This document shows positions 3,336-62,728 of a stretch of DNA of 64,000 nucleotides, piece by piece. The first letter of the stretch is position 1; each line of letters begins with the position of its first letter. A model generated the notes under the pieces. It searched no databases. It saw nothing but the letters and a program-made list of their open reading frames with translations, and was not told the origin of the DNA. Source of the stretch: an uncultured Verrucomicrobia subdivision 3 bacterium (GTDB taxonomy: Bacteria; Verrucomicrobiota; Verrucomicrobiia; Limisphaerales; UBA11358). A program made the translations under genes and the position numbers. The stretch spans positions 16,636-80,635 of the forward strand of contig CAIXUZ010000049.1 of the NCBI GenBank assembly GCA_903922735.1, given 5' to 3'.

Positions 3336-6305
3336 TCAACCGATCAGGCTCTTCGCCTTGGCCAGCGCTTCATCCAATTTGCCCGCGTCCTTGCCACCGC
3401 CGCGCGCGTTGTCCGGCTTGCCGCCGCCTTTGCCGCCGACGATTGGCGCAATCTGCTGGATGATTTTCCCTGCCTGAACTTTCGCGGTGAATTCCGGCGA
3501 GACGTTTGCAATGAGCGTCACGCTGCCGTTCGCTGCGCCACCGACGACGATGACGCCTTTGAATCGGCCTTTCACCGCGTCCACGATGGCTTGTAAATAT
3601 TCGCCGTCGGCGTCGGGGAACGCTTGCGTGATGAGCGGGATGCCGTTTACTTCCGTCGTGCGCGTGAGCAACCAACTCGCGGTCTGCGCAGCGTTGCGCT
3701 GGATTGCCGACTTGAGCAACTTTTCCAATTCTTTTTGGTGCGCGAGCAAGGCTTCAACTTTCTTTTCCAGTTCCCCAACGGGCGAATTGATTTTGCCGGC
3801 GATGCTGCGGATGAGTTGCAACTGCTCGTTCGCCAAGCCGTAAGCGGTCAATCCCGCGACCGCTTCGATGCGCCGAACACCGGCAGCCACAGCGGCTTCA
3901 CTGACGATGCGGAACAAACCAATCTCGCCGGTCGCCCGCGTATGCGTACCGCCGCATAGTTCCATCGAATAGCCATCCAGTTTGCCGGCGCCGCCACCGA
4001 TTTGGACGACGCGGACGGTGTCGCCGTATTTGTCGCCGAAGAATTGCATCACGTCCTTGCGCGATTTCACGTCGGCGTGCGCGACTTCCGCCCACGAGAC
4101 GCCCGCGTTTTCGAGGATGCGTTCGTTGACGAGCTTTTCAATATCAGCGACCTGCCGGGGTGTGAGCGGCGCACTGTTGAAGTCGAAGGTCAATTTGTCC
4201 GGCCCGACGAAGGAACCTTTCTGCGAAGCCTCCTTGCTAGCGACTTCGTGCAAGGCCCAGTGCAGCAAATGTGTGACGGTGTGGTGGCGTTGGATCGCGT
4301 TGCGCCGAGACAAATCAACTGAAAGTGAAACGGTGCTGCCGACGACCGGCGCAGTTTCAAGTTTCAAGTTTTCAGTTTCAAGGAAATGCAAGAACGTGTT
4401 GCCGCTCTTCTGCGTGTTGGAAATCCGCCACAATTTTCCGCTGCCGGTCAACTCGCCGGTGTCGCCGACCTGTCCGCCCATCTCGGCGTAGCACGCGCTG
4501 GTGTCGAGGATGACGGCGGTTTTGTCCTTCAAAGAGACGACTTCGAGAACTTTGGCCGGCACGGCCAGTGCCTCGTAGCCGACGAACTTCGTGGGCGTGG
4601 TGGTCTCGATTTGCGAGAGGGAAATGACTTCCTTCTTCTGCGCGGCGCGGGCGCGGGCGCGCTGCTCTTCCATCAACCAATCAAATTCGGCCTTATCCAC
4701 ACTGAACCCATGCTCACGCGCCATCAACTCTGTCAAATCGAGCGGAAACCCATACGTGTCGTAAAGAGTGAAAGCAAAACTGCCAAGAAATTCCACCGGC
4801 TTTTTTGGTGGTGAAGGAATGCCATTAACCAAGACTGGATTTTCTTTTCCCTGTTTCACAGCCGACATCATTCCATCGAACCGCTCAATTCCGTTGTCCA
4901 ACGTCTTGTTAAACGCCTCTTCCTCGCGCTGGATGGTTTCCTGCACCTGCTTCTTGCGGGCACGGATTTCGGGGAAGACGTCGCCCATCGTGTCGGCGAG
5001 GACGTCCACGAGTTTGTAGAAGAACGGTTCCTTGAATCCGAGGGTGCGTCCGTAGCGCACGGCGCGGCGCAGGATGCGGCGCAATACGTAGTTCCGGTCC
5101 GTGTTCCCGGGCTGGATGCCGTCGGCAATGGCAAAACTGAGGGTGCGGATATGGTCGGCGATGACGCGAAAAGCGATGTCCTCGGCAATTTGGGCGGCAT
5201 TATCGGCGCGACCGGCAGGGTTATCGGTTGAGCCGATAGGCTTATCGGTCGAACCGGCACGGTTATCGGCGGAACCGATAGCCCTATCGGCTGAACCGAC
5301 AGACGTGCCGGAACCGGCGACAGGCTTATCGGCGGAACCGGCAGGCTTACCGGTTGAACCGGTCGCCTTATCGGTCGAGCCGATAGGGTTGTCGGCTGTT
5401 CCGATAATGCGATTGGCGTCGCCGGGCAGCGTGCTTTTATAGGTTTTCCCGCTCATTTTCTCCAAAGCGTCAAAAATGGGGCGGAAAATGTCGGTTTCGT
5501 AGTTGGAAATCTTGGCGTGGGCAAAATCCGTCAGGTTTTTAGTGCCTTGGATGATGCTGGTGACGCGCTCGAAACCCATGCCGGTGTCCACCGCTTTTGC
5601 CGGCAGCGGCGAAAAGGTGCCATCCGGATTGGCGTTGAACTGCATGAAGACGAGGTTCCAGATTTCAATGCAGCGGGCGTCGCCTTTGTTCACCAGACTG
5701 CCTTTGGTATCGCCGGCGGGCGTCAAATCCACATGGAGTTCGGAGCAGGGGCCGCACGGGCCGGTTTCGCCCATCATCCAGAAATTATCTTTCTTGTTGC
5801 CGTTGACGATGTGGACGGCGGGGTCGAGGCCGACGGAACGGAATTTCTCGGCCCAGAAGTTCCACGCTTCCTGATCGAATTCGCTGGGGTCGTTTTTGGA
5901 TTTGTCCGGATTGTAAACGGTGGCGTAAAGGCGTTGCGGCGGGAACTTCCAGATGTTCACGACCAACTCCCACGCCCATTCGATGGCTTCCTGCTTGAAA
6001 TAGTCGCCGAAGGACCAGTTGCCGAGCATCTCAAAGAACGTGTGGTGATAGGTGTCGAGGCCGACGTCGTCAAGGTCGTTGTGCTTGCCGCCGGCGCGAA
6101 TGCATTTCTGGGTGTCGGCGGCGCGACCGGGTGTGTAAGGACATTGGCTCTGGCCGAGGAAGATGGGCACGAACTGGTTCATGCCGGCGTTGGTGAACAG
6201 CAGGTTCGGGCTGTCCGGCATCAGGCTGGACGAGGGAACGATGGTGTGCTGCTTCGATTTGAAAAAATCGAGGAACGATTGGCGGATTTGCGTGCTGGTC
6301 ATCAT
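3336..6305 (-). CDS. alaS: Alanine--tRNA ligase, with an in-frame repeat insertion
   Basis: MMTSTQIRQSFLDFF, LLFTNAGMNQF, HHTFFEMLGNWSFGDYFK, DTGMGFER, editing HHTVTHLLH and ELCGGTH, C-terminal GGKGGG. Start placed at ATG 6305. Confidence 0.98.
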   Translation of the reverse strand: MMTSTQIRQSFLDFFKSKQHTIVPSSSLMPDSPNLLFTNAGMNQFVPIFLGQSQCPYTPGRAADTQKCIRAGGKHNDLDDVGLDTYHHTFFEMLGNWSFGDYFKQEAIEWAWELVVNIWKFPPQRLYATVYNPDKSKNDPSEFDQEAWNFWAEKFRSVGLDPAVHIVNGNKKDNFWMMGETGPCGPCSELHVDLTPAGDTKGSLVNKGDARCIEIWNLVFMQFNANPDGTFSPLPAKAVDTGMGFERVTSIIQGTKNLTDFAHAKISNYETDIFRPIFDALEKMSGKTYKSTLPGDANRIIGTADNPIGSTDKATGSTGKPAGSADKPVAGSGTSVGSADRAIGSADNRAGSTDKPIGSTDNPAGRADNAAQIAEDIAFRVIADHIRTLSFAIADGIQPGNTDRNYVLRRILRRAVRYGRTLGFKEPFFYKLVDVLADTMGDVFPEIRARKKQVQETIQREEEAFNKTLDNGIERFDGMMSAVKQGKENPVLVNGIPSPPKKPVEFLGSFAFTLYDTYGFPLDLTELMAREHGFSVDKAEFDWLMEEQRARARAAQKKEVISLSQIETTTPTKFVGYEALAVPAKVLEVVSLKDKTAVILDTSACYAEMGGQVGDTGELTGSGKLWRISNTQKSGNTFLHFLETENLKLETAPVVGSTVSLSVDLSRRNAIQRHHTVTHLLHWALHEVASKEASQKGSFVGPDKLTFDFNSAPLTPRQVADIEKLVNERILENAGVSWAEVAHADVKSRKDVMQFFGDKYGDTVRVVQIGGGAGKLDGYSMELCGGTHTRATGEIGLFRIVSEAAVAAGVRRIEAVAGLTAYGLANEQLQLIRSIAGKINSPVGELEKKVEALLAHQKELEKLLKSAIQRNAAQTASWLLTRTTEVNGIPLITQAFPDADGEYLQAIVDAVKGRFKGVIVVGGAANGSVTLIANVSPEFTAKVQAGKIIQQIAPIVGGKGGGKPDNARGGGKDAGKLDEALAKAKSLIG
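5200..5409. repeat. Ten degenerate 21-bp tandem repeats with internal palindrome, in frame inside alaS
   Basis: Units such as TTATCGGTTGAGCCGATAGGC / TTATCGGTCGAACCGGCACGG / TTATCGGCGGAACCGATAGCC; core TATCGG-N5-CCGATA; read in AlaS as (I/A)GS(A/T)D(K/N)P heptads. Confidence 0.92.
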
Positions 6306-6422
6306 GCGAAATTGAGCGTTGAGCCTAGCGCAAGGAGAGCAGACAGGCGAGTGGAAGTTTTGCATTGAGCCGGTTGCAAAACGGCGGCGATGGACGCATA
6401 ATCTGACCACCTTGATATTTTC

Positions 6423-27740: not shown

Positions 27741-27950
27741 GGATATGTCTCCATGAAATTGACGTCGTCAAAGTGACAGAACTTAATTTATCACATTCTA
27801 GCATCGCATGCTAACCTACCAAAACGAACCGGGTCGTCAACCGGCAAGCGAGTTTCCGGTTTTGTGAGAGTCGAGAGGCCGATGGCCTTTCGCGGCGGGG
27901 GTTGGGATGACGCAAATGAATGTCCATCCACTTCAGCGCCCATTACTCCC

Positions 27951-27999
27951 AGAAGTGGAAACCGATTCTCCTTGCTTGGGGAGAAGGCCGGGATGAGGG
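27951..27999 (-). repeat. REP-like element (CCCTCATCCCGGCCTTCTCCCC family)
   Basis: Reverse strand CCCTCATCCCGGCCTTCTCCCCAAGCAAGGAGAA; related copies at 31312 and 62086-62276. Confidence 0.7.
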
Positions 28000-28201
28000 A
28001 GGATAAAAACATTTCCTGTCAGACTTGATGCTTCACCGGAAGTTGGAGCAGCCGACGTCTGTCGGCTCCAATTAATTCCCCCGCATCAATATTTAGAATG
28101 TGCGGACTCACATTCGCTGCAAAACCCCACAACCCCATCGGGCAGTGGCCTGATTCGCGCGAAGGGCGCGAAGAAGATAAAGGTAAAACTTTCCGCCATG
28201 G

Positions 28202-28237: not shown

Positions 28238-28693
28238 TCACGTCTCCGACATCACCCAGGCGGAGAACGGGCTCCACTGGCCGCCCACCCGGTAACGCAT
28301 GGCCATCAGCGGAGCGACCCCGCCGTTACCGCCATGCTTCGTCCAAACTGTGCCGCCGTCCGTGCTGCCGGACAATACGGGGAGCAACGTGCAGTTGGAC
28401 AAATCCTGATTGGGGTCGATGCCGCTGCTGACGGTGACGACACATTGCCACGCCTCCGGCGCGGCGGACACCAGGCTTTTGTCGATGCTCCCATCGGCGG
28501 AGGAACTCAGGTCGCTGCTGATCTCCGGCACCGACAGCGGGAAATGCGCCTGCAAACCGGCGATCTGGATTTGCTGGTCCGCGACTTGGGTTTGGAGCGC
28601 ATCGATGAGCGCTTTGAGGCCGTTGAACTGGTTGCGCAATTCCGCCGCCACGATGGGCGCATGATTCACGGGTAATGTCGGGTCGTATGGCAT
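28238..28693 (-). CDS. Hypothetical protein with short N-terminal coiled coil
   Basis: MPYDPTLP..APIVAAELRNQFNGLKALID followed by heptads and a beta-rich C-terminus (MRYRVGGQWSPFSAW); GC-biased codons; co-oriented with the FN3-like gene. Confidence 0.75.
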   Translation of the reverse strand: MPYDPTLPVNHAPIVAAELRNQFNGLKALIDALQTQVADQQIQIAGLQAHFPLSVPEISSDLSSSADGSIDKSLVSAAPEAWQCVVTVSSGIDPNQDLSNCTLLPVLSGSTDGGTVWTKHGGNGGVAPLMAMRYRVGGQWSPFSAWVMSET

Positions 28694-28713
28694 AAATAAT
28701 TAGTTATTGATTG

Positions 28714-28801
28714 GTAGGGCGGGCAGTCCCCTGCCCGCCGCTGTTGTCAACAAACACGTTCTGGTTCACCACGACGGCGCGCAGGGGACTGCGCGCCCTA
28801 C
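28714..28801. repeat. GTAG-type REP doublet (inverted pair)
   Basis: GTAGGGCGGGCAGTCCCCTGCCCGCCG ... CGGCGCGCAGGGGACTGCGCGCCCTAC. Confidence 0.8.
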
Positions 28802-28840: not shown

Positions 28841-29557
28841 TCAGGGCACGATCTTCGTGGCCGGGTCGCTCCAGGCGCCATCATTCACCGGTTTCGGTGC
28901 CCGCGCTTTCACGCGGAACCACAGCTTCTGTCCGCTCGTCAGGTCCGTGAGGCTATACTTGCTGCCGCTGCACGAATCCACCAGCTTCCATTTGCTTGCA
29001 TCGTTCGGGTCGGTGCTCATCTGCACCTGGTAATTCTTCGTGCCGCGCACCGGATCCCATTGCAAATCCAGCCGCCCCTCGGCGTCGCCCGCCGTGATGG
29101 AGAGATTCTGCACCTGCGCCAGCGGCCCGATGGGCGCGGCGGACGCCTTGACGCTCATGCCTGCACTTTCAATCTTCACCTTGTTGCCCTGGGTCACGTT
29201 GGACACATAATCCCCCAGCGAGGTGACGAGTCCACTCAACGTCGTGATGGCCGCGTCGCGGTCATCCGTCGCCTGTTTGGCGGCTTGCGCCGCCGCTTTT
29301 TGCGCCGCCACTTTCGTCGTGGCCGTGGCCAAGGCCGTGCTGACTGAGGCCAGCGTCGGGTTCGGCGTGGTGAAATTCGCATTCCCCGTCATCGCCGTGA
29401 TGATCTGGTCGGTCAGCGACAGGATTTCATCCGGCGTCATGCCGCCGAGTCCTAATTTGACTTTTGCCATTTTTTTTATCTCCAGTTGCGGCACGACCGG
29501 TTCATCATAATTAACGGATCCGTCATAAACGGATGCACTGTCATCATAATCAGCCAT
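28841..29557 (-). CDS. Helical domain + fibronectin type III-like domain protein (copy A)
   Basis: Ala/Thr-rich helical N-half; C-terminal LDLQWDPV.G..NYQVQ...LTDLTSGQKLWFRVKA...WSDP is an FN3 pattern; no signal peptide; second Met at residue 30. Confidence 0.82.
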   Translation of the reverse strand: MADYDDSASVYDGSVNYDEPVVPQLEIKKMAKVKLGLGGMTPDEILSLTDQIITAMTGNANFTTPNPTLASVSTALATATTKVAAQKAAAQAAKQATDDRDAAITTLSGLVTSLGDYVSNVTQGNKVKIESAGMSVKASAAPIGPLAQVQNLSITAGDAEGRLDLQWDPVRGTKNYQVQMSTDPNDASKWKLVDSCSGSKYSLTDLTSGQKLWFRVKARAPKPVNDGAWSDPATKIVP

Positions 29558-29746
29558 ATCATGCCTCGTTTATTTTTGTTGCTGCTCCCGCCCGCCGGCC
29601 GCCAGGCCGACCAAGCCGGAAGAACTGATGACGGTTTTACCACAAGCCGACCCGGCCCAAATACGATACTTTCCAAATCTTTTTATCGGGCTTGGGAAAA
29701 TGATTTTTCAAGGCGGAAACGCGGCCCCCCCAGCTTCCCGCCGGCT

Positions 29747-29998
29747 TTCCCGGAACTGGAAACCGGTTTCCCGAGCTTGGAATACGACTTTCCTAAACTG
29801 GGAAACGGTTTCCCAAGATTGGGAAATGACTTCCCAAGACTGGGAAATGACTTCCCAAGACTGGGAAATGACTTCCCAAGACTGGGAAACGACTTCCCAA
29901 GACTGGGAAACGACTTCCCAAGACTGGGAAACGACTTCCCAAGACTGGGAAATGACTTCCCAAGACTGGGAAACGATTTCCAAAAAGCAAAAAACCGT
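29747..29998. repeat. Tandem array of twelve 21-bp palindromic repeats
   Basis: TTCCCAAGACTGGGAAA(T/C)GAC near-perfect at 29810-29977 with degenerate flanking units; each contains TTCCCA-N4-TGGGAA. Confidence 0.95.
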
Positions 29999-30111
29999 CG
30001 AATCAGACTGAAAACCAGCACTTTAGGCTAAAAAAGCGAAAAACGGGTGTTTTGGACGCATTTCCAACCCTCCGCCAGACGCCACGCGCGGGTTGGATGG
30101 GAAAGCCATCG

Positions 30112-31662: not shown

Positions 31663-32100
31663 ATGAAAGCCAACGAGGTGTTGCGGAAGTTCTTCAAGAA
31701 GCATGGCACCAAAAAGCTCGCGGGGACGCTGGGGCTCTCGGAGCCGTTCCTCTACAAGTGGTGTCAGCCGGACGGCGGCAAGGCGTCGGGCGGCTGGAAT
31801 CCGCTGGAGCGCGTGGCGGCGCTGACGGCGGCGACGGGCGATGAGGCGTTGCTGGATCATCTCTGCGAACAGGCGGGCGGGCGCTTTGTGCGGTCGGCGG
31901 AAATGCCCACGCTCCTGCGCCGCTGGTGGACGCAACTGAAGGCGGAAATGGAAGCGCTGCTAAAAACGGAAGGCGGAAAACGGAAAGCGGAAGCTGCCTT
32001 GGAACCGGCGGGAGATTTACAATGCCAACCGGGAGGTTTTAGGTGCCGGCATCGTTTGCCCGGCGGGCGGTGCGGTTTCAGGGAGGCGCAACGGAATTAA
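31663..32100 (+). CDS. HTH DNA-binding protein, phage regulatory CII-like
   Basis: KKLAGTLGLSEPFLYKWCQP (HTH-like) followed by NPLERVAAL..ATGD..LL..LC..AGG.F; AAAGGA RBS upstream. Family recognised from memory. Confidence 0.65.
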   Translation: MKANEVLRKFFKKHGTKKLAGTLGLSEPFLYKWCQPDGGKASGGWNPLERVAALTAATGDEALLDHLCEQAGGRFVRSAEMPTLLRRWWTQLKAEMEALLKTEGGKRKAEAALEPAGDLQCQPGGFRCRHRLPGGRCGFREAQRN

Positions 32101-32174: not shown

Positions 32175-33647
32175 TCAGGCTTGGCGCCACTCAGCCAGTT
32201 GTTTTTCCCAGCGATGATTAAGGGCGACGAGCTGCGCGTGAAAACTACTGGCCGAGGAGATCGGTTTCATGGGCAACAACCAGCGGAAGCCAATCTCAGC
32301 AAGCCGGGCGCAAAGGTCCGGTGCCAATTGTCGGTATTTATGCCGGCGGCGCTGCGTATAAACCCAGTGGCCCAGGGAAGGATCTGGCGGATAATCGTAG
32401 GGGACATGACAGTGGCCGTGAGCGGCTTTGAAGGCGATGAGTTTGGCCCAGTTCACTTCCCATCGTTCCCGGCCGATGAGTTGAATATCCCAGTCAAAGC
32501 CGATTGCTTCCAGACGCTGGCGGCGATCCGGGCGGAGGCGCTGGAGCCGGGCGTCGCGTCGCTGCCGGATAACCCAGGCCCCCAACTGTTGCAAAGGGAT
32601 ATGATGGCGCGGAACCCGGCAATGGCCGTGCTGTTTTTTGTATTCGACCAACTCCGCCAGTTTTGCGTCCCACTGCCGGTCCAGCGCAGCCAGGTGTTGC
32701 TGGAAGGAGGCGATGAGGGCGTCGCGCCGGTAGCGGTTGTCCCACTTGAAGCCGATTTGTTCCAAGCGAGCGATGCGGTCCGGCTTGAGTTTGCCGTGAT
32801 TGCGAAAGCTGCGCTGATTGGACACCCAGTGGGCGAAGAGCGGGTCTTCGGGCCAATGGCCGTGAACATCGCAGTGGCCGAAGCGGGCCTTGAAGTCAAC
32901 GAGCTGGGCAAAGCGCTTCTCCCAACCAGAAAACTGCAACTGGTGTCCCGTCCAGTCAAAGCCGATTTCATCCAAACGCTGGCGCTGTTCCGGCGAGAGC
33001 TGGTGGTGCCGGGATTTTACCCGCTGGCGAATCATCCATTTGTGCAGGCGGCCAGCGTAGCCATCCTTTTTTCCAACCCGGCAATGCCCCTGTTGATTTT
33101 TGAAAGCGACGAGGTTGGCAAACTGGGCGTTCCACAGGGCATCACGAGCGGTGATCCGGCCTCGAAGGGATGGCATCGGAGCCGCCTGACCAAGGAGAGG
33201 ATGCCAGCGGAAACCCAGTTGATCGAGCCGGTCAACGCGGTCCTGAAGAAGCCGTTTCTGATTGCGAAAACTGCGCTGGTTGGAAACCCAATGGGCGAAG
33301 CATCGGTCTTCGGGCCAATGGCTGGGAACATCGCAGTGAGCATACTTTTTTTTGAAAGCCACGAGCTGGGTAAAGCGCTTCTCCCAACGCTGTTCGTTGG
33401 ACATAATAGGACTGGACGGAGAGCGGGGTTGGACCTGAGCGAATACGCCCAAAACATCAAGCCGGCGGATTTGTTCAGGACTCAATCGGCCGACCACCCA
33501 GGCAAGACGCTGCTGCATCAGCCAATACGAGAGGCTGTCCGGGCGCGGATTGTGCGGGACGTCACAATGATGGTGAAAACGGAAAAAAATGCACAGCCTT
33601 CTAAACATCTTTTTCCATGACAGTGGAATCGACCGGTTCGCTTGCAT
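32175..33647 (-). CDS. Stand-alone helicase-associated (HA) repeat protein
   Basis: Six W...(F/L)..L..FK...GHC.VP.......L..WV..QR......L...R..RL..IGF.W units (the first degenerate) plus a truncated seventh; no helicase motifs. Confidence 0.85.
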   Translation of the reverse strand: MQANRSIPLSWKKMFRRLCIFFRFHHHCDVPHNPRPDSLSYWLMQQRLAWVVGRLSPEQIRRLDVLGVFAQVQPRSPSSPIMSNEQRWEKRFTQLVAFKKKYAHCDVPSHWPEDRCFAHWVSNQRSFRNQKRLLQDRVDRLDQLGFRWHPLLGQAAPMPSLRGRITARDALWNAQFANLVAFKNQQGHCRVGKKDGYAGRLHKWMIRQRVKSRHHQLSPEQRQRLDEIGFDWTGHQLQFSGWEKRFAQLVDFKARFGHCDVHGHWPEDPLFAHWVSNQRSFRNHGKLKPDRIARLEQIGFKWDNRYRRDALIASFQQHLAALDRQWDAKLAELVEYKKQHGHCRVPRHHIPLQQLGAWVIRQRRDARLQRLRPDRRQRLEAIGFDWDIQLIGRERWEVNWAKLIAFKAAHGHCHVPYDYPPDPSLGHWVYTQRRRHKYRQLAPDLCARLAEIGFRWLLPMKPISSASSFHAQLVALNHRWEKQLAEWRQA

Positions 33648-42214: not shown

Positions 42215-44701
42215 TTAGGATTCTCGATTGCCGATTTCAGCCCGGGCTCGCAGCGCGGCCAGCACTTGTCCCAAGGCGATGCCGCCGTCGTTGGGCGGAA
42301 CACGCTGGTGCCAGTGCGGCTGGAAATTTTCGGCGCGCAGCCGGGTCACCGTCCGCTCCACCAAATAACGATTCTGGAAGCAGCCACCGCTTAACACGAC
42401 GCGAGTTTCCCCGATTTTTTTGGCGACGGCAACCACCGACTCAGCGAGCGCATTGTGAAATTTTGCAGAAATTTCCCCAATCGCAACGCCGCCGGCGGTG
42501 TCGCTCAAGACCGATTGCACCAGGGGCGACCAATCCAAAACCAATGGCGGTTTTCGGTTTTCGATTTCAAATTTGGATGAGACGACACGCGCGGGAGCCA
42601 GCGACAAGGAATACGCTTCAGCCAGCTTGATGTCACCAATCGCAAACTCCAGTTCCATCGCCGCCTGTCCTTCAAAGCGAAGGTGCTGCCGCAAATTGGT
42701 CAGCGAAGCCACCGCGTCGAATATCCGGCCCAGGCTCGAAGTCAGCGGCGAATTGAAACGGCGCTGTAACATTCCGCGCAGCGTCATCATCTCCACCGGC
42801 GGGATCGCCCGCAGCGGGGCCAGATGCTCCATCTCAAACGCGGACTCGCCATACAACTCATACAGCAGCCCCAACGCGACGCGACGCGGTTCCTTCATCG
42901 CCTTGTCGCCGCCGGGCAGCGGGAACAGGCGCAGGTGCGCGACGCGCTCGACGTTTTTTTCCGTGACCAAAAAAAATTCACCGCCCCAAATGGTGCCATC
43001 CGTGCCATAGCCCGTCCCGTCCCACGCGACCCCAAGCGCGGGCAACGGCACTTCGTTTTCCGCAATGCACGACAGAACGTGCGCGATGTGATGTTGGACT
43101 TGGATGACGTGCGGAGCGCCGAGCACCGTCTCGGCGAGTTTGCTGCTTTTACGGGCTGAGTCGTGTCGGGACGATGCCCGGCGCTCCAGTGCAAATTTCG
43201 TCGAAAGGTAATCCGGGTGCAGATCGGCGGCGATGATGTCCGGCTGAACCGCGTAAAGCCTGGGCAAATCGGCGGCGACGCGGCGGAAGGCTTGATGGGA
43301 CGCCTCCGTTTCCAAATCGCCGATGTGCTGGCTGATGAAAACATTTCCACCAACGGCCAGTGCGACGGAATTTTTCAGATGCGCACCCACCGCCAAAATT
43401 GTTTTAGGTTCAAGCTTCAGCGTTCCGGGTTTATCGGCAGCTTGCAGTTTTGAACCCTGAACTCGGAACCCTAAACTTTGAACGCCCATGTCAATTGGCA
43501 GCGGCGCATATCCCCTCGCCCGGCGCAAAACCATTTCGCGTCCCAGCATCACGCGGACGATCGAATCATCCATATGCCGGACAATCGGGCGGTTGTGGAC
43601 GAGGAATACGTCGGCAATACCGCGCAACCGATTGAGCGCTTCAACCTCATCGGTGCAAATCGGCTCATCACTCAAGTTGCCGCTGGTGGCGATGACGGGA
43701 AAGTCCAGTTCCCCCATGAGCAGATGATGCAGCGGATTGGAGGGCAGCATGACGCCGAGGTTGGGATTTCCGGGGGCAATTTCATTTCCGATTTCCGATT
43801 TCCGACCTCCGCTTTTTTTCAGCAGGACAATCGGCGCCTCCGGCGATCGCAGCAATCGTTCTTCCAACGGCGAAACTTCGCAAACTGTCATCACGCTGGC
43901 GAGTGAGGGAAACATCAACGCGAATGGCTTTTCTTCACGATGCTTCCGTTCCCGCAATCGCCGGACGACGTTTTCGTCACGCGCATCGGCCAGCAGATGA
44001 AAGCCGCCAACGCCTTTGACCGCGACGATTTTCCCGTCACGAACCGCGTTGACGGCGGCTTTCAACGCCGCATCTTGGTGGCAGAGGACTAGCCCGGCGC
44101 CATCCCAGAATTGCAATTGCGGGCCACAGGCGGGACAGGCGTTGGGCTGCGCGTGAAAGCGGCGGTCGCGGGGATTTTTGTATTCCGCCTGACATTGCGG
44201 ACACATTTTGAAACCGCGCATCGAAGTGTTGGCGCGATCGTAGGGCAATGCCTCGATGAGGCTAAAACGCGGACCGCAGTTCGTGCAATTGGTGAACGGA
44301 TAGCGGAAACGACGGTTGGCCGGGTCAAGAATTTCGCGCAAACAATCCGGGCAAGTGGCGATGTCCGGCAAAACCAGCACGGATTTGCCACCGGAAGTTT
44401 CGCTCGCGCGGATTTCAAACTGGTCATAGCCGATGGCATCCAGCCAAGAGGATTCGAGGCTTTGGATGGAACTGCGCGGCGGTTTTTCGGTCTCCAGTCG
44501 GAGCAGAAATTTTTCCAACGCGGAATGGCTGCCTTCCGCCTCGATGAAAACGCCCTGCGGCGAATTGCTGACCCAGCCGGCAAGTTTCAATTCTTCCGCC
44601 AGCCGGAAGACAAAGGGACGGAAGCCCACGCCCTGCACCGCGCCGCGCAACGCGATTTTCAGGCGCGCCGTCGTTGTCTTTAACTGATGGGATGGAATCA
44701 T
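42215..44701 (-). CDS. hypF: Carbamoyltransferase HypF, with several short repeat-derived insertions
   Basis: GAVQGVGFRPFV, zinc fingers CPDC...CTNCGPR and CPQC...CPACGP, KGVGGFHL, QHHIAH, DGTGYG, NDGGIALGQ. Confidence 0.97.
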   Translation of the reverse strand: MIPSHQLKTTTARLKIALRGAVQGVGFRPFVFRLAEELKLAGWVSNSPQGVFIEAEGSHSALEKFLLRLETEKPPRSSIQSLESSWLDAIGYDQFEIRASETSGGKSVLVLPDIATCPDCLREILDPANRRFRYPFTNCTNCGPRFSLIEALPYDRANTSMRGFKMCPQCQAEYKNPRDRRFHAQPNACPACGPQLQFWDGAGLVLCHQDAALKAAVNAVRDGKIVAVKGVGGFHLLADARDENVVRRLRERKHREEKPFALMFPSLASVMTVCEVSPLEERLLRSPEAPIVLLKKSGGRKSEIGNEIAPGNPNLGVMLPSNPLHHLLMGELDFPVIATSGNLSDEPICTDEVEALNRLRGIADVFLVHNRPIVRHMDDSIVRVMLGREMVLRRARGYAPLPIDMGVQSLGFRVQGSKLQAADKPGTLKLEPKTILAVGAHLKNSVALAVGGNVFISQHIGDLETEASHQAFRRVAADLPRLYAVQPDIIAADLHPDYLSTKFALERRASSRHDSARKSSKLAETVLGAPHVIQVQHHIAHVLSCIAENEVPLPALGVAWDGTGYGTDGTIWGGEFFLVTEKNVERVAHLRLFPLPGGDKAMKEPRRVALGLLYELYGESAFEMEHLAPLRAIPPVEMMTLRGMLQRRFNSPLTSSLGRIFDAVASLTNLRQHLRFEGQAAMELEFAIGDIKLAEAYSLSLAPARVVSSKFEIENRKPPLVLDWSPLVQSVLSDTAGGVAIGEISAKFHNALAESVVAVAKKIGETRVVLSGGCFQNRYLVERTVTRLRAENFQPHWHQRVPPNDGGIALGQVLAALRARAEIGNRES
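43113..43187. repeat. 75-bp palindromic element in frame in hypF
   Basis: GGAGCGCCGAGCA...TGCCCGGCGCTCC terminal inverted repeat; length equals 25 codons. Confidence 0.75.
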
Positions 44702-57767: not shown

Positions 57768-57896
57768 AGCGCTCACGCTTCGCCACCCAGGGTTGCCAGC
57801 TACCACTCTTTACCACTCTTAGGCCGGCACAAAACCAACCCCCGCCGGCGAACTGGTGTTTGACTATTGACCAACGTTGACAAAGAATCGGCCTGT

Positions 57897-60674
57897 ATGC
57901 GTCACGGACGAAGCAATTTTTTTCTGCTGCCGGTTATCTTCGTGATTACGATCGCCGAGTTTCTTTTTGACATGGCGACGCCCGTGGGAATATCTGATTG
58001 GGTTCTGTATTTCATTCCCCTGACGCTGACGGTCTTTGTCGGCACCCGTTATTTCCCGTATCTGCTGGCCGGACTATTTACTGTGCTGATGTTTTCCGGG
58101 CTCTATTTGTCTCCCGCCGGTGCTCCCACCAGCCTCGCGTTGACCGGACGGTCAATTGGCATGATTGGTTTGTGGGTGATGGCCCTGATTATTGCCGAGC
58201 GAAAAGCCATTGAAGGCGCTCTTCGCCACACCCAACGCACCTTGAAGACCATCAGCGAATGCAATCAGGTGCTCGTGCGCGCCTCCAGCGAATCGGAACT
58301 GCTTCACGAAGTTTGCCGCATCATCGTGGAAGACGGCGGCTATCGGCTGGCCTGGGTCGGCTTCCCGGTAAATAACGAGGAAAAATCGGTGACTATCGCG
58401 GCCTTCGCCGGTTGCGATGAAGGCTATTTGGATAGCCTGCAAATCACCTGGGCCGATCAGGAACGCGGGCGCGGACCCGTCGGCACCTGCCTCCGCGAAG
58501 GTCAAATGGTCATTTGTCGCAATTTCCTGGCCGACCCTAAAACCGCCCCCTGGCATGAGGCCGCATCCAAACGCGGCTTCGCCTCCATGATCTCCCTGCC
58601 CTTGTTGAATGAGAAAAAAGTCTTCGCCGTGCTTTCCATATACGCCAAGGAAGCGAACGCATTTGCCGACGAAGAAGTTCGCCTGCTCAACGAACTGGCG
58701 GGGGATTTGACCTTCGGCATCATCACCCAGCGCGCGCACCTCGAACAGCAGCAGGCGGAAACGGCCCTGGAGAATGAACGCAACCTGTTGCGCACCCTGA
58801 TCGACAATATTCCCGACTCCGTCTATGTGCGGGATCTGGCCAACCGCTATGTGCTCGCCAACAAGACCCTCGCCCGGCGATTGGGAGTGGCCGACCCCGC
58901 CGCGGTGATTGGCAAGACCGACGCGGATTTTTTCGACGCGACCCACGCGGCCAACGGCGCCCTAATCGACCGCGAAATTTTCGCCGGGAAACTTTATCTT
59001 AACTTCGAGCAAACCCATCCGTTCCCCGACGGCAAACTGCGCACCATTCTTGCCAACAAAGTGCCCCTGTATGATGCGCGGGGGGCGGTGACCGGCCTGG
59101 TCGGCATCGGGCGCGACATCACCGAGCGCAAGCTGGCGGACGAAAAAATCCGCGAACAGGCCGAGTTGCTCAACCTCGCCCACGATGCCATCACCATCCG
59201 CGACCTCGACCATCGCATCACTTATTGGAACCGCAGCGCTGAACGCATCTACGGGTGGACGGACGCCGAAGCCCTCGGCCAACCCATCCATCAGCTATTG
59301 AAGCTGGAACCAACCAAAATGGCCGAAGCCCGGCAGTTTTTGCTGGAGAACGGCTATTGGGTCGGCGAATTAACCGCCCGGACCAAAGACCGGCGCGAAG
59401 TGCTGGTGGAATCCAGTTGGACCCTCGTGCGCAACGCCGATGGTCAGCCCCAGTCGGTGCTCGCCTTCAGCGTCGATATCACCGAACAGCGGAAATTGGA
59501 ACATCAGGTTGCCCGCAACCAGCGGATTGAAAGCCTCGGCACCCTTTCCAGCGGCATCGCCCACGACCTCAACAACGTCCTGACCCCGATCATGATGTCC
59601 ATCGGTCTGCTCAAAGATCAGGCCCATGATCCAACCGTTTCCAAGCTCGTCGCCGGCCTTGAATCCAGCACCCAGCGCGGCGCCCAGCTCGTGAAGCAAA
59701 TTCTCACTTTCGGACGCGGCGTCAAAGGCGAGCGCATCCCGGTCAGCCTGCGCACCGTCGCCCGTGAAATACAACTGCTCATCCAGGAAACCTTCCCCAA
59801 GTCCATCCAGTTGGAATGCAACCTGCCTGACAGTCTTTGGATCGTCATCGGCGACCCCACGCAAATCGACCAGATTTTGCTAAACCTCGCCATCAACGCC
59901 CGCGACGCCATGCCCAACGGCGGCAAACTCACCTTCACCTTTGAGAATACGGTTGTGGATCAAGCCACGGCGGCAATTAATTCAGAAATCCGCCCCGGTT
60001 CCTACGTCTGCATCCACATCACGGACACCGGCATTGGGATGACGAAAGAGATCATTGCGCGGATATTTGACCCGTTCTTTACCACCAAGCCGACCGGTCA
60101 GGGCACCGGCCTCGGCCTTTCCACCACTTTGGGCATCGTCAAAAGTCATGGCGGCTTCATCAATGTTTACAGCGAACCCGGCAAAGGCAGTATTTTCAAA
60201 GTTTACCTCCCCGCCCAAGCCTCCGGCGAATTCACCGAAGCGGAACCTCAAAGAGAACAAAAGTTAGCGAGTGGCCGCGGTGAACTCGTCCTGCTGGTGG
60301 ACGATGAGGAAGCCATTTGCTCCACCGTCAAAAAGATTCTTGAACGGTTCGGCTACCGGGTGCTCACCGCCGCCAACGGCGCGGAAGCCATCTCGCTCTA
60401 TGCCACCCATGGCAAGGACATCGCCGTCGTCATCACCGACATGCACATGCCCATCATGGACGGCCCGGCCACCATCATCGCCCTCCAAGCCATAAACCCC
60501 CGCGTCAAGATCATCGGCTCCAGCGGCCTGGCTGCCAACGGCGGCGTCGCCAAAGCCGCCAGTTCCGGCGTGCGCCATTTTGTGCCCAAACCCTATTCCA
60601 CGGAAAAAATCCTCCGCACCCTGCGCGATATCCTGGAAAATCGCCTTGAGGAAGAAAACAACCCGAGCATCTGA
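57897..60674 (+). CDS. Membrane hybrid sensor histidine kinase (GAF, two PAS, kinase, receiver)
   Basis: N-terminal TM helices, GAF (GYRLAWVG...GRGPVG), PAS domains, H-box GIAHDLNNVL, FDPFFTTK..GTGLGL, receiver LVDDE...TDMHMP...KP. Confidence 0.92.
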   Translation: MRHGRSNFFLLPVIFVITIAEFLFDMATPVGISDWVLYFIPLTLTVFVGTRYFPYLLAGLFTVLMFSGLYLSPAGAPTSLALTGRSIGMIGLWVMALIIAERKAIEGALRHTQRTLKTISECNQVLVRASSESELLHEVCRIIVEDGGYRLAWVGFPVNNEEKSVTIAAFAGCDEGYLDSLQITWADQERGRGPVGTCLREGQMVICRNFLADPKTAPWHEAASKRGFASMISLPLLNEKKVFAVLSIYAKEANAFADEEVRLLNELAGDLTFGIITQRAHLEQQQAETALENERNLLRTLIDNIPDSVYVRDLANRYVLANKTLARRLGVADPAAVIGKTDADFFDATHAANGALIDREIFAGKLYLNFEQTHPFPDGKLRTILANKVPLYDARGAVTGLVGIGRDITERKLADEKIREQAELLNLAHDAITIRDLDHRITYWNRSAERIYGWTDAEALGQPIHQLLKLEPTKMAEARQFLLENGYWVGELTARTKDRREVLVESSWTLVRNADGQPQSVLAFSVDITEQRKLEHQVARNQRIESLGTLSSGIAHDLNNVLTPIMMSIGLLKDQAHDPTVSKLVAGLESSTQRGAQLVKQILTFGRGVKGERIPVSLRTVAREIQLLIQETFPKSIQLECNLPDSLWIVIGDPTQIDQILLNLAINARDAMPNGGKLTFTFENTVVDQATAAINSEIRPGSYVCIHITDTGIGMTKEIIARIFDPFFTTKPTGQGTGLGLSTTLGIVKSHGGFINVYSEPGKGSIFKVYLPAQASGEFTEAEPQREQKLASGRGELVLLVDDEEAICSTVKKILERFGYRVLTAANGAEAISLYATHGKDIAVVITDMHMPIMDGPATIIALQAINPRVKIIGSSGLAANGGVAKAASSGVRHFVPKPYSTEKILRTLRDILENRLEEENNPSI

Positions 60675-60836: not shown

Positions 60837-61046
60837 CAAAAAGGAAGGTTCGGATACCAAAAAGGAAGGTTCCAAAATCAAAAAGGAAGGTTCGGATGCG
60901 GCAAAAGAACCTTCCGATGGAACAAAAGAAGGTTCCTAAATGAAAAAGGAAAGTTTGAATGCGACAAAAGAACCTTCCGAAATCAAAAAAGAACCTTCCG
61001 AAATCAAAAAGGAAGGTTCCCAAACGACCAAGGAACCCGCATTCAA
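60837..61046. repeat. Tandem array of about ten degenerate 21-bp repeats with GAA-NN-TTC core
   Basis: CAAAAAGGAAGGTTCGGATAC / CAAAAAGGAAGGTTCCAAAAT / GGCAAAAGAACCTTCCGATGG / GACAAAAGAACCTTCCGAAAT etc.; the 21-bp phase continues weakly back to about 60774. Confidence 0.9.
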
Positions 61047-61246
61047 TATCTACGGTCAAAATCCCCTGCCCTGACCATCTCCGGCAGACAAAAATCGAAC
61101 GCCTTTCACAACCCATTCAGAATGAATTAAATATACTGATGAGTATTTCTTGAAGATTAGCCGGACTATTGTATGATAAAAACCGTCAGACAGGCCTGAA
61201 GTTTGACCTTGCCTGAAACGGTAAACATCAAAGTAAATAAAAAATT

Positions 61247-61948
61247 ATGGATGCTGTCTGGGGCTCCGGCCAAACGTGGGGTTCAAAAGGGTTGGCTTGG
61301 GGATCAGGCACAAGAAAGGACCTCAATATGCCACTCATTCATGTTTCATTGGGCTTCATGGAATACAAGGACTACGAACTGGACGACTTTGCCACCAAAG
61401 TGGTCATCGACTGCACCGCCAATGCGGGCACCTTGGGCACTCTGCCAGTGTCGATGACGGTGTTGGACGGCGCGCAAAAGAGTTTCCACACCGCCCTTTC
61501 TCTGGTCAAAGGCGGCGGCACTGACACCACCGCGGATAAAACCGCCAAACGCCTCACCCTGCTGGGCCTCCTGCGCCAAAATGCGCTAGCCCTCCAAGCC
61601 AAACCCGGTTTGACCGAAACCGACGTGAATTTGAGCGGCTACAAACCCGTCGTGTCCGGTTCCCATGCGCCCGTGGCCGTGAACGTGCCGGCCATCCTCG
61701 ATGTCATCAACGTGGCCTCCACCAAGCTGGGCTTTAAGATCACGCCGGTGGCGGGCGCGGTTTTTTACGAATTTCAAGGCAAGGTGGGGAACAATCCGGC
61801 GCAACTGCTGGGCACCGTCAAGAGCACCCGGAACATTGTCATGGAGAACCTGATATCCGGCACGACGTATGTCCTGCAAGTGCGCGCCGGTTATGGCGGC
61901 AACCGCTTCAGCGAGTGGAGCGAGCCGGTCACCCACATGTGCACCTAG
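61247..61948 (+). CDS. Helical domain + fibronectin type III-like domain protein (copy B)
   Basis: C-terminal PVAGAVFYEFQ...MENLISGTTYVLQVRA...SEWSEP FN3 pattern; same length and layout as 28841..29557; second Met at residue 28. Confidence 0.8.
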   Translation: MDAVWGSGQTWGSKGLAWGSGTRKDLNMPLIHVSLGFMEYKDYELDDFATKVVIDCTANAGTLGTLPVSMTVLDGAQKSFHTALSLVKGGGTDTTADKTAKRLTLLGLLRQNALALQAKPGLTETDVNLSGYKPVVSGSHAPVAVNVPAILDVINVASTKLGFKITPVAGAVFYEFQGKVGNNPAQLLGTVKSTRNIVMENLISGTTYVLQVRAGYGGNRFSEWSEPVTHMCT

Positions 61949-62309: not shown

Positions 62310-62728
62310 CCAGCACCAGCGGCGCGGCATCTTTGTAGAACCAAGATTCCGTTTTGCCCAAGCTCCGTCAGGAGCGGCATGATGAAAATAGCCCAGCCAT
62401 TCATGGCTGGGTGGTGAATCCCAAAGCAGATTGAGTCCCGCAAGGGACGGCAGAAATAGGGGTGGCCGTCCGCAAGGACCTTTCGTCCCTGACGGGACTT
62501 TTCATCATCGGAAACCGGCAACCCAGCACTAAAGTGCTGGGCTATTTTCAAGGGACTGGCTGGAATGGATTTAAAATAAGCTCCAGCGCCAGCGGCGCGG
62601 CATCTTTGTAGAACCAAGATTCCAATTTGGAAAAGCTCCGTCAGGAGCGGCATCAGATTATGTCGCTCCTACGGAGCTAAAATTATCGGGACATTGAGCC
62701 TACCAAGATTTCGCGCCTACGGCGCTGG
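62310..62728. repeat. Composite REP/REPIN-like cluster
   Basis: 71-bp direct repeats at 62310-62380 and 62583-62653 (AGCGGCGCGGCATCTTTGTAGAACCAAGATTCC...AGCTCCGTCAGGAGCGGCAT), inverted partner at 62660-62728, and a nested palindromic element TGAAAATAGCCCAGC...GCTGGGCTATTTTCA at 62383-62550. Confidence 0.85.

Follow-up and report, generated by a model that had tools for sequence, protein, structure and literature searches.

Our analysis of a 64,000-nucleotide stretch of the genome of an uncultured Verrucomicrobia subdivision 3 bacterium (the window, C49:16636-80635, within 4.48 Mb in 82 contigs) establishes that arrays of 21-bp tandem repeats and the gene that follows them, here called g1, form a real and conserved module whose pairing is far from chance. 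It extends to most g1 relatives in other bacteria of fresh water and soil. The module is a composite, with a phased T-tract leader, the array, an AT-rich promoter-like stretch, g1 and, often, a second gene, g2, in that order. The association itself, the fixed period, the polarity of the element, selection on the unit sequence and the recurrence of unit types are all observed. We infer that the arrays bind protein, that the AT-rich stretch holds the promoter and that transcription is affected, and our preferred though tentative reading is that a factor encoded elsewhere binds each array at many sites, the array serving as a helically phased platform that lies before the promoter.

Array, leader and gene as one module

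The preliminary description of the window placed twelve 21-bp units about 190 bp before a 238-aa gene, and Tandem Repeats Finder (TRF), our means of array detection, bears this out with 11.6 copies that end 184 bp before the ATG of g1 (copy A). On the gene strand, about eight near-perfect units (CAGTCTTGGGAAGTC[A/G]TTTCC) give way to about four degenerate units towards the gene, and in each unit the inverted half-sites TGGGAA and TTCCCA alternate with spacers of 5 and 4 bases. The same layout had been reported near 61 kb with a divergent paralogue and a different repeat, and this too is correct: copy B has 9.0 copies of its unit at a distance of 210 bp from the open reading frame (ORF). The units of copy B switch orientation (GGAAGGTTC versus GAACCTTCC) instead of forming the plain hairpin palindrome described for them. 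BLASTP relates the two proteins weakly (E 0.012, confined to the FN3 part); an hhalign comparison of the A group (three sequences) with the B group (three) gives a probability of 98.1% and an E value of 9e-14 over 214 columns, and this profile-profile match makes A and B full-length paralogues.

A hidden Markov model of the g1 family, run on the 13,332 ORFs of the genome, finds eight paralogues, and the merged period-21 TRF rows amount to 58 arrays of at least 63 bp each. A period-21 array precedes six of the eight paralogues at a distance of 130-430 bp; the seventh is preceded, 219 bp away, by a remnant of 2.5 copies, and the eighth has none. We calculate that an array would be expected within 700 bp of about 0.9% of gene starts taken at random. 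Neighbouring periods are rare in this genome (119 TRF rows at period 21, 12 at period 20 and one at period 22). Among order-level genomes (41 loci; 32.8 kb of upstream sequence versus 77.9 kb of other sequence), an array lies upstream, defined here and in the metagenome sample as within 700 bp before g1, at 17 of the 41 loci, and a period-21 repeat lies elsewhere in one. The metagenome sample, 80 loci with 38-86% identity to copy A, has upstream arrays at 56 loci, and at 51 of the 60 loci with at least 400 bp of upstream sequence; repeats of this period occur elsewhere in seven loci, six times within the g1 coding region. Other families and classes of the phylum, for which we counted at least 2.9 copies within 300 bp upstream, contribute 4 of 10 loci. 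All arrays upstream of g1 homologues have a period of 21 or a multiple of 21, and no tandem repeat of period 15 or longer with any other period was found within 700 bp upstream in the 80 metagenome loci. Unit sequences differ nearly everywhere between loci, and the period, which the preliminary description had equated with two helical turns, is the sole invariant across them. The concern that the two copies in the window might be coincidences of a repeat-rich genome does not survive these counts.

The pairing of array and helical/FN3 gene, put forward as a module, thus stands, and its extent has had to be redrawn. The module is larger than first described, with a T-tract leader and a putatively fibre-like second gene, and array types are also found before unrelated genes. 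The element is polar. In the 120 bp beside gene-linked arrays, runs of T4 or longer average 2.4 on the gene-distal side versus 0.86 on the gene-proximal side, and at least three such runs occur at 19 of 43 loci distally and at 1 of 43 proximally. Across the genome a leader accompanies 42 of the 58 arrays versus a background of 3%, and its polarity, where readable, agrees with gene direction in 5/5 modules. Degeneracy runs the same way, the gene-proximal half being the more degenerate in 39 arrays and the less so in 16 (P 8e-4); arrays of fewer than six units were left out here, and identical consensus units were counted once, as in the stem-mismatch, bend and sub-repeat/harmonic analyses below. 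In having an A/T-rich leader at one end, degenerate leader-distal units and often palindromic repeats, these arrays resemble CRISPR loci, though their units are contiguous and have no spacers.

Between array and ATG, an AT-rich stretch is present in 10/10 modules of the genome, and the AT-rich block of copy A is conserved upstream in the orthologues L077-L080. A sigma-70 consensus scan of the gene strand of copy A returned no match, so the block is put forward as a candidate promoter or operator. The pattern of hairpin, CA-rich stretch and AGGC that follows it in copy A also precedes most of the listed homologues when inspected by eye.

Unit conservation and unit types

Although units differ between most loci, their sequence is not free to drift. 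Near-neutral positions set the expectation among orthologues of copy A, with an identity to copy A of 0.71 at codon position 3, 0.70-0.77 in the spacer between array and ATG and about 0.65 in the leader. Against this, the consensus unit of copy A is kept at 21/21 positions in L078 and L118, whose proteins are 84% and 60% identical to that of copy A. The unit of L077 (86% amino acid identity) has six changes, of which four are two compensating arm pairs (GGGAA/TTCCC to GCAAA/TTTGC); in L079 both arms have changed in a compensating manner, and the arms of L084, CCGAA/TTCGG, represent another such change. The centre, AAGTCGTTT, is retained throughout the clade A units. Since units are either fully kept or compensated in their arms in close orthologues, the unit sequence is under selection.

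Palindromy, part of the preliminary description of the arrays, is enriched but neither general nor a defining feature: stems of at least 5 occur in 19 of 83 gene-linked arrays versus 4.7 expected from shuffled units. The A/T pattern of the units (arrays of fewer than four units left out) shows no excess power at period 10.5 and has a 7-bp harmonic (7.93 versus 5.22, P 8e-4).

Unit types recur within the genome. When the 58 arrays are clustered by shared 11-mers, 9 of the 10 module arrays group with at least one other array. The type A unit is found at three further loci without flank homology, two of which repeat the leader-array layout before unrelated genes, one for a signal-peptide protein and one for a membrane protein, and a unit similar to the copy B type lies at C68:40247-40439. 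Many arrays outside modules precede genes with signal-peptide-like N-termini, as judged by eye, and in one relative an array lies just upstream of acs (acetyl-CoA synthetase).

A proposed phased binding platform and its alternatives

On the reading we prefer, the composite cis element would begin with the intrinsically bent T-tract leader and continue with 5-15 units of exactly 21 bp; the AT-rich promoter-like stretch would come next, followed by a structured leader sequence and then the operon. As 21 bp corresponds to two turns of B-DNA, each unit would show the same DNA face, and a sequence-specific, often dimeric factor from elsewhere in the genome would load cooperatively along that face, much as dimers of a response regulator occupy Bordetella promoters every 22 bp. 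Transcription of the g1-g2 operon would be governed by this loading. Every module carries a unit type of its own and, since a unit type recurs before a few unlinked genes, each would correspond to a small regulon, through which alternative g1-g2 modules would be wired to different signals. The products of g1 (helical hairpin and FN3) and g2 (fibre-like) would then be cargo rather than binders. A multi-site platform fits the observations best because the period is fixed at two turns, the array lies before the promoter-like stretch, selection on the arms is symmetric and compensating, and unit types recur at unlinked genes.

The closest parallel is BvgA, a regulator of the NarL/FixJ type. BvgA binds the Bordetella Pptx promoter as six dimers, arranged head to head every 22 bp along one DNA face, at inverted half-sites that lie upstream of the core promoter and are individually weak and variable (PMC7250471). 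At Pfha and Pptx, sites two helical turns apart fall on one face, a property that the 21-bp period shares; inverted half-sites are present in copy A, stems being enriched but not general across the arrays. Unlike the BvgA sites, the arrays here consist of 5-15 near-identical, tandemly duplicated units with a strict 21-bp period and a T-tract leader, and they end 70-430 bp before the ATG; the unit differs between paralogous loci, and the regulator is only postulated. In published full text (supplements not covered) we found no description of the layout, in agreement with the initial impression that no named system has it; the nearest known kinds are phased repeat operators and iteron-like arrays.

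If the platform reading is correct, a widespread, uncharacterised two-gene module of Verrucomicrobia would be controlled by a long, two-turn-phased, polar and fast-evolving upstream element. It would provide a natural system for how cooperative binding on one face scales with site number, for the co-diversification of binding specificity and sites on a chromosome, and for selection that preserves helical phase.

Several points weigh against this reading, and we acknowledge them together. The array binder is a postulated factor, and the position of the promoter is a predicted one. Arrays of 10-15 units far exceed any operator known to us, and a single genome has at least 35 unit types, for which many specific factors would be needed. 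Stems of at least 5 are absent from 64 of the 83 gene-linked arrays. The clade A units keep the centre GTCGT and vary in the arms, the opposite of what dimeric protein sites usually show and a better fit to a hairpin. A model with one monomer per turn predicts a direct sub-repeat of 10/11 bp; none was found in the units, and we have rejected that model. Arrays are missing from 9 of the 60 eligible metagenome loci, from 24 of the 41 loci of relatives and from two of the eight complete g2 modules. Finally, the third array of the window lies in frame within alaS, which shows that a promoter role is not needed for an array to form or be maintained.

The search for a binder begins with the module itself. 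Each paralogue had been proposed to pair with its own array; a distinct unit per paralogue is indeed found, but the idea that the protein reads that array is not borne out. The isoelectric points (pI) of g1 and g2 are 5.2 and 4.5, and neither a DNA-binding fold nor a Pfam DNA-binding family was found in them (Pfam scan of both; structure model and Foldseek for g1). Being acidic and lacking such a fold, g1 is unlikely to be the array reader, and the acidic g2 is likewise a poor candidate. A CII-like helix-turn-helix protein, encoded near array A, is a possible candidate on the basis of gene position: homologues are divergent from the array in L077, L109-111, L138 and contig C6, about five distinct loci. 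Adjacency at these loci only led us to reject it as a general binder. Its helix-turn-helix stretch appears identical by eye between copy A, with GGGAA arms, and L077, with GCAAA arms. A link to sensor kinases was also discarded, as kinase-like ORFs near four arrays are within a rough estimate of chance.

Among the alternatives, the one that survives best, to which we give some but limited credence, is that the arrays are architectural: the small bend of any unit that recurs every two helical turns would add up coherently, making leader and array a strongly curved or readily wrapped segment that could fold back onto RNA polymerase or become covered by a general nucleoid protein such as HU/IHF, and the period would matter, not the sequence. 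This would account for an invariant period beside a sequence that turns over, and phased T-tracts like those of the leader are a classic form of bent DNA. A wedge model with provisional parameter values predicts a net bend per unit of 19.8 degrees versus 14.2 degrees for shuffled units (mean percentile 0.64, P ~7e-4, n=78), with about 29 degrees for copy A, and the genome encodes four HU/IHF-family proteins, while searches for H-NS or histone-fold proteins found none. However, a unit kept at 21/21 positions across orthologues with about 70% identity at neutral sites, the compensating arm changes and the repetition of unit types at unlinked loci all weigh against it. The bend excess is also modest, some units being nearly straight (3.9 degrees at C49:2292), and the A/T pattern has no excess power at 10.5 bp.

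Less likely is a contingency switch, in which slippage would alter unit number and with it the promoter output of fibre-like or exported genes, giving population heterogeneity, for example against phages or grazers; such a switch is compatible with protein binding. Known contingency loci include the 7-bp repeats of Haemophilus hmw and the TTTTGAT heptads of Vibrio ctx, where copy number in the promoter region modulates expression, and the arrays here are likewise tandem repeats upstream of putative surface or exported protein genes. Those units, unlike ours, are 1-7 bp long and have neither helical-phase logic nor a leader. The more homogeneous gene-distal half indicates ongoing unit turnover, and assemblies break at the arrays: most homologues sit on contigs of 1-3 kb, and DNA contigs of three runs end at array edges, where the unit number is unreadable. 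Since short-read assemblies break at the arrays, metagenomes contain the genes that follow in systematically fragmented form. A study of lake Planctomycetota notes intergenic tandem repeats of variable length, for which it gives no period or gene link (PMC9426551). Against a switch, copy-number polymorphism was not observed in these data, the near-identical loci L109, L110 and L111 have equal array lengths, and steps of two helical turns keep phase, so that output would be tuned rather than switched.

A broader conjecture, which we also consider unlikely, treats leader-primed arrays as evolvable address tags that would give private regulons to about ten fibre-like g1-g2 modules and a few exported-protein genes. 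Matching arrays at unlinked genes would belong to the same regulon, and each module would be wired to a reader of its own. Growth or renewal of an array would take place next to the leader and its decay next to the gene, the two-turn period would be kept, and the unit would be switched by compensating changes. If true, this would be chromosomal specificity diversification, with a logic like that of plasmid incompatibility determinants used for gene control.

We regard it as quite improbable that the array yields a functional RNA made of a chain of hairpins, whether a 5' leader, a small RNA or a sponge that sequesters an RNA-binding protein. The fixed GTCGT centre of clade A, with arms that covary around it, is what loop-read hairpins show, and folding is more stable than in shuffled sequences (z = -11.1 for array A and -5.9 for array B). 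Clade A mismatches (a hand sum of 31 A:C versus 9 G:T) also favour wobble pairs on the antisense strand of g1. Outside clade A, however, the lean is in the opposite direction, and over all arrays the strands are balanced (131 G:T versus 117 A:C, P 0.41), so a constraint on DNA is favoured over one on RNA. The many arrays without stems, a diffuse folding ensemble (minimum-energy structure frequency 0.0001) and an AT-rich promoter-like stretch that lies downstream of the array speak against it as well. No Rfam model reached its gathering score, the best match being 29.2 bits versus a threshold of 100 bits for a plant microRNA model. The hairpin-array RNA raised at the outset therefore finds no backing in wobble-pair strand asymmetry or Rfam.

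It is very unlikely that the arrays are functionless, neutral or selfish minisatellites accumulating upstream by happenstance. The genome is rich in repeats, with an excess of periods 7, 14 and 21; one array lies within a coding gene (alaS), and several adjoin remnants of g2, suggesting rearrangement. Yet arrays are retained at 51/60 metagenome loci among relatives of 38-86% protein identity, their position and polarity are fixed, and the unit is conserved above neutral expectation. Three g1-negative genomes of the same genus have no array in 400 kb of sampled DNA versus about five per 400 kb here, and a g1-positive relative has two in 320 kb, all small samples.

Largely refuted, finally, is a role as iterons or centromere-like sites of a mobile replicon. 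Iterons (pSC101, R6K, P1, F, lambda ori) are direct repeats of 17-22 bp that adjoin bent, AT-rich DNA and lie either before a gene or inside it; their sequence diverges between related replicons, an adjacent Rep initiator binds them, and there is one origin per replicon. The arrays share with them tandem direct repetition, with 11.6 and 9.0 copies in the window, and a unit length in the iteron range, and the bent DNA, repeats and AT-rich stretch upstream of a gene resemble theta-type plasmid origins. Centromere arrays (parC of R1, the inc18 omega heptads) are short tandem repeats before a two-gene operon that double as its operator, and the 7-bp A/T harmonic of our units recalls the 7-bp sub-structure of the omega system. 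But 58 arrays in 4.48 Mb, some beside housekeeping genes (alaS here, acs in the relative), are a chromosomal, multi-locus context, with dozens of arrays per chromosome. The scanned module genes contain no Rep-like protein, NTPase or ribbon-helix-helix gene, and Pfam and PHROG scans of g1, g2 and scanned neighbours gave no ParA/ParM or centromere-binding family. The linked gene encodes instead an acidic helical hairpin with FN3. A tyrosine recombinase (C49:1007-2122; L048:1007-2119; SAM-like N-terminal domain, Pfam E 1.9e-37), outside the window, stops 173 bp short of another module's array and might be read as a sign of mobility; its paralogues lie away from arrays, and with one recombinase beside one module and none near other arrays, we rejected an integrase link. 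A viral origin of the module was rejected likewise, as three scans of viral contigs found no relative.

Module proteins and neighbouring features

As the preliminary description proposed, the protein of copy A has a helical half and an FN3-like half, and its translation, inspected by eye, has no hydrophobic N-terminus. An AlphaFold2 model from a 70-row alignment (mean predicted local distance difference test, pLDDT, 88.4) has a disordered acidic/aromatic N-terminus, a helix at residues 42-56, a 54-residue helix at 69-122 that completes a hairpin, and a beta sandwich at 150-238. The modelled sandwich matches solved FN3 domains in Foldseek with a probability of 1.00 and template modelling (TM, target) scores of 0.65-0.81, and we assign it the FN3 beta-sandwich fold on this model; Pfam fn3 scores 21.1 bits, under its 25-bit cut-off. 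All 557 database relatives of g1 are labelled 'hypothetical protein'. Of 401 genomes sampled in the phylum, 5 have a family member with an E value of 1e-15 or lower, a sparse distribution; within the order the family is common (25 of 41 genomes, the present one counted).

The first gene is followed by g2 (151-167 aa) in six modules of the genome, which has ten copies of g2. The C-terminal ~105 residues are near-identical among these copies, and the N-terminal ~45 vary around a conserved motif. At the DNA level, the corresponding ~105 codons (28238-28553 in the window) and the hairpin upstream of g2 are 80-95% identical among at least ten loci, which differ in the N-terminal ~45 codons and in the gene ahead of g2; a constant 3' segment beside differing 5' parts suggests gene conversion or recent spread of the constant part. 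In other genomes the conserved part of g2 is the N-terminal motif, which occurs after g1 in 33 of the 80 metagenome loci, many of which end soon behind g1, and in 23 of the 39 loci of at least 3 kb. No Pfam or PHROG match to g2 was found, and its structure model is poor (pLDDT 59.7). Some g2 relatives contain collagen repeats, and language-model look-alikes include phage-fibre clusters, among them a 'pyocin knob domain' cluster at 0.90, which we treat as a lead only. The first-gene slot may alternatively be filled by an unrelated 248-aa protein, g1' (C11, C72, C53), or by a 157-aa helical protein; g1' was considered as a distant relative of g1 and, at an hhalign probability of 7.9%, is treated as unrelated despite its position.

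Contigs of a wetland metatranscriptome have a summed depth of 489 over 28668-28738, the g1-g2 intergenic hairpin, versus 1-61 in other covered bins; this peak may reflect a widespread repeat rather than the copy A locus itself. The RNA library contigs cover g2, the hairpin and the 3' part of g1; the array is uncovered, which makes them uninformative on its transcription. Four arrays elsewhere in the genome (C51:1-618, C78:40906-41371, C76:66256-66462 and C8:53126-53671) stand directly before fragments of the g2 3' end or of downstream sequence, an arrangement that a deletion of g1 and most of g2 would leave.

The features of the window are collected in Table 1.

Table 1. Features of the two modules and associated elements, in window coordinates
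Feature	Position	Strand	Basis and remarks
Leader, copy A	29986-30070	minus	phased T4-6 tracts about 10 bp apart, on gene-distal side of array
Array, copy A	29741-29985	minus	TRF, period 21, 11.6 copies
AT-rich block, copy A	29650-29700	minus	candidate promoter/operator (CGATAAA...TTATCG) between array and gene
Presumed 5' untranslated region, copy A	29558-29649	minus	GC-rich hairpin, CA-rich stretch, AGGC, ATG; by eye
g1, copy A	28841-29557	minus	238-aa ORF
g1-g2 intergenic inverted repeat	28712-28801		reverse self-match; matches other modules; in multicopy segment
g2, copy A	28238-28693	minus	151 aa; conserved N-terminal motif, coiled coil, beta-rich C-terminal domain; putatively fibre-like
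CII-like helix-turn-helix gene	31663-32100	plus	opposite strand, 1.65 kb from array A; Pfam PF06892, E 6.6e-5, below cut-off
Array, copy B	60837-61037	plus	TRF, 9.0 copies of 21-bp unit CAAAAAGGAAGGTTCCGAAAT, some flipped
Promoter-like site, copy B	61150-61177	plus	TTGAAG-16-TATGAT, sigma-70-like; consensus scan, pattern match only; within AT-rich stretch
g1, copy B	61247-61948	plus	233-aa paralogue, without g2 behind
Third array	5200-5396		TRF, period 21, palindromic unit; inside alaS ORF (3336-6410, minus)

The alaS array encodes about nine heptad repeats (xGSxDxP-like) and splits the Pfam match to the catalytic domain in two; relatives have inserts of 0 to ~680 bp at this site, in which no 21-bp array was detected. 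The CII-like gene adjoins a gene for a 490-aa protein (32175-33647, minus) with six helicase-associated repeats (HA, PF03457; E 7e-104). On the side of copy B, a hybrid sensor kinase with GAF, PAS, HisKA, HATPase and receiver domains (57867-60674) ends 163 bp before the array. Dispersed short repeats at 27947-28009, 62310-62380 and 62583-62653 have copies on many contigs, and the ORFs across them resemble the leucine/proline-rich pseudo-ORFs common in these genomes.

Shorter periods are also abundant. TRF rows of the genome number 239 at period 7 and 100 at period 14 versus 7 at period 6 and 39 at period 8, with examples in the window at 4353-4382, 31963-31992 and 43784-43805; the period-7 excess recalls the heptanucleotide short tandemly repeated repetitive (STRR) repeats of cyanobacteria. 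More than 20 short period-10 arrays of phased A- or T-tracts (GGTGACAAAA, TGTCGCGTTT and similar) are spread across the genome, several of them at contig ends (for example C7:24-70, C8:24-70, C12:1759-1804 and C65:14697-14748). They resemble the T-tract leaders, and in some cases a 21-bp array may be lacking.

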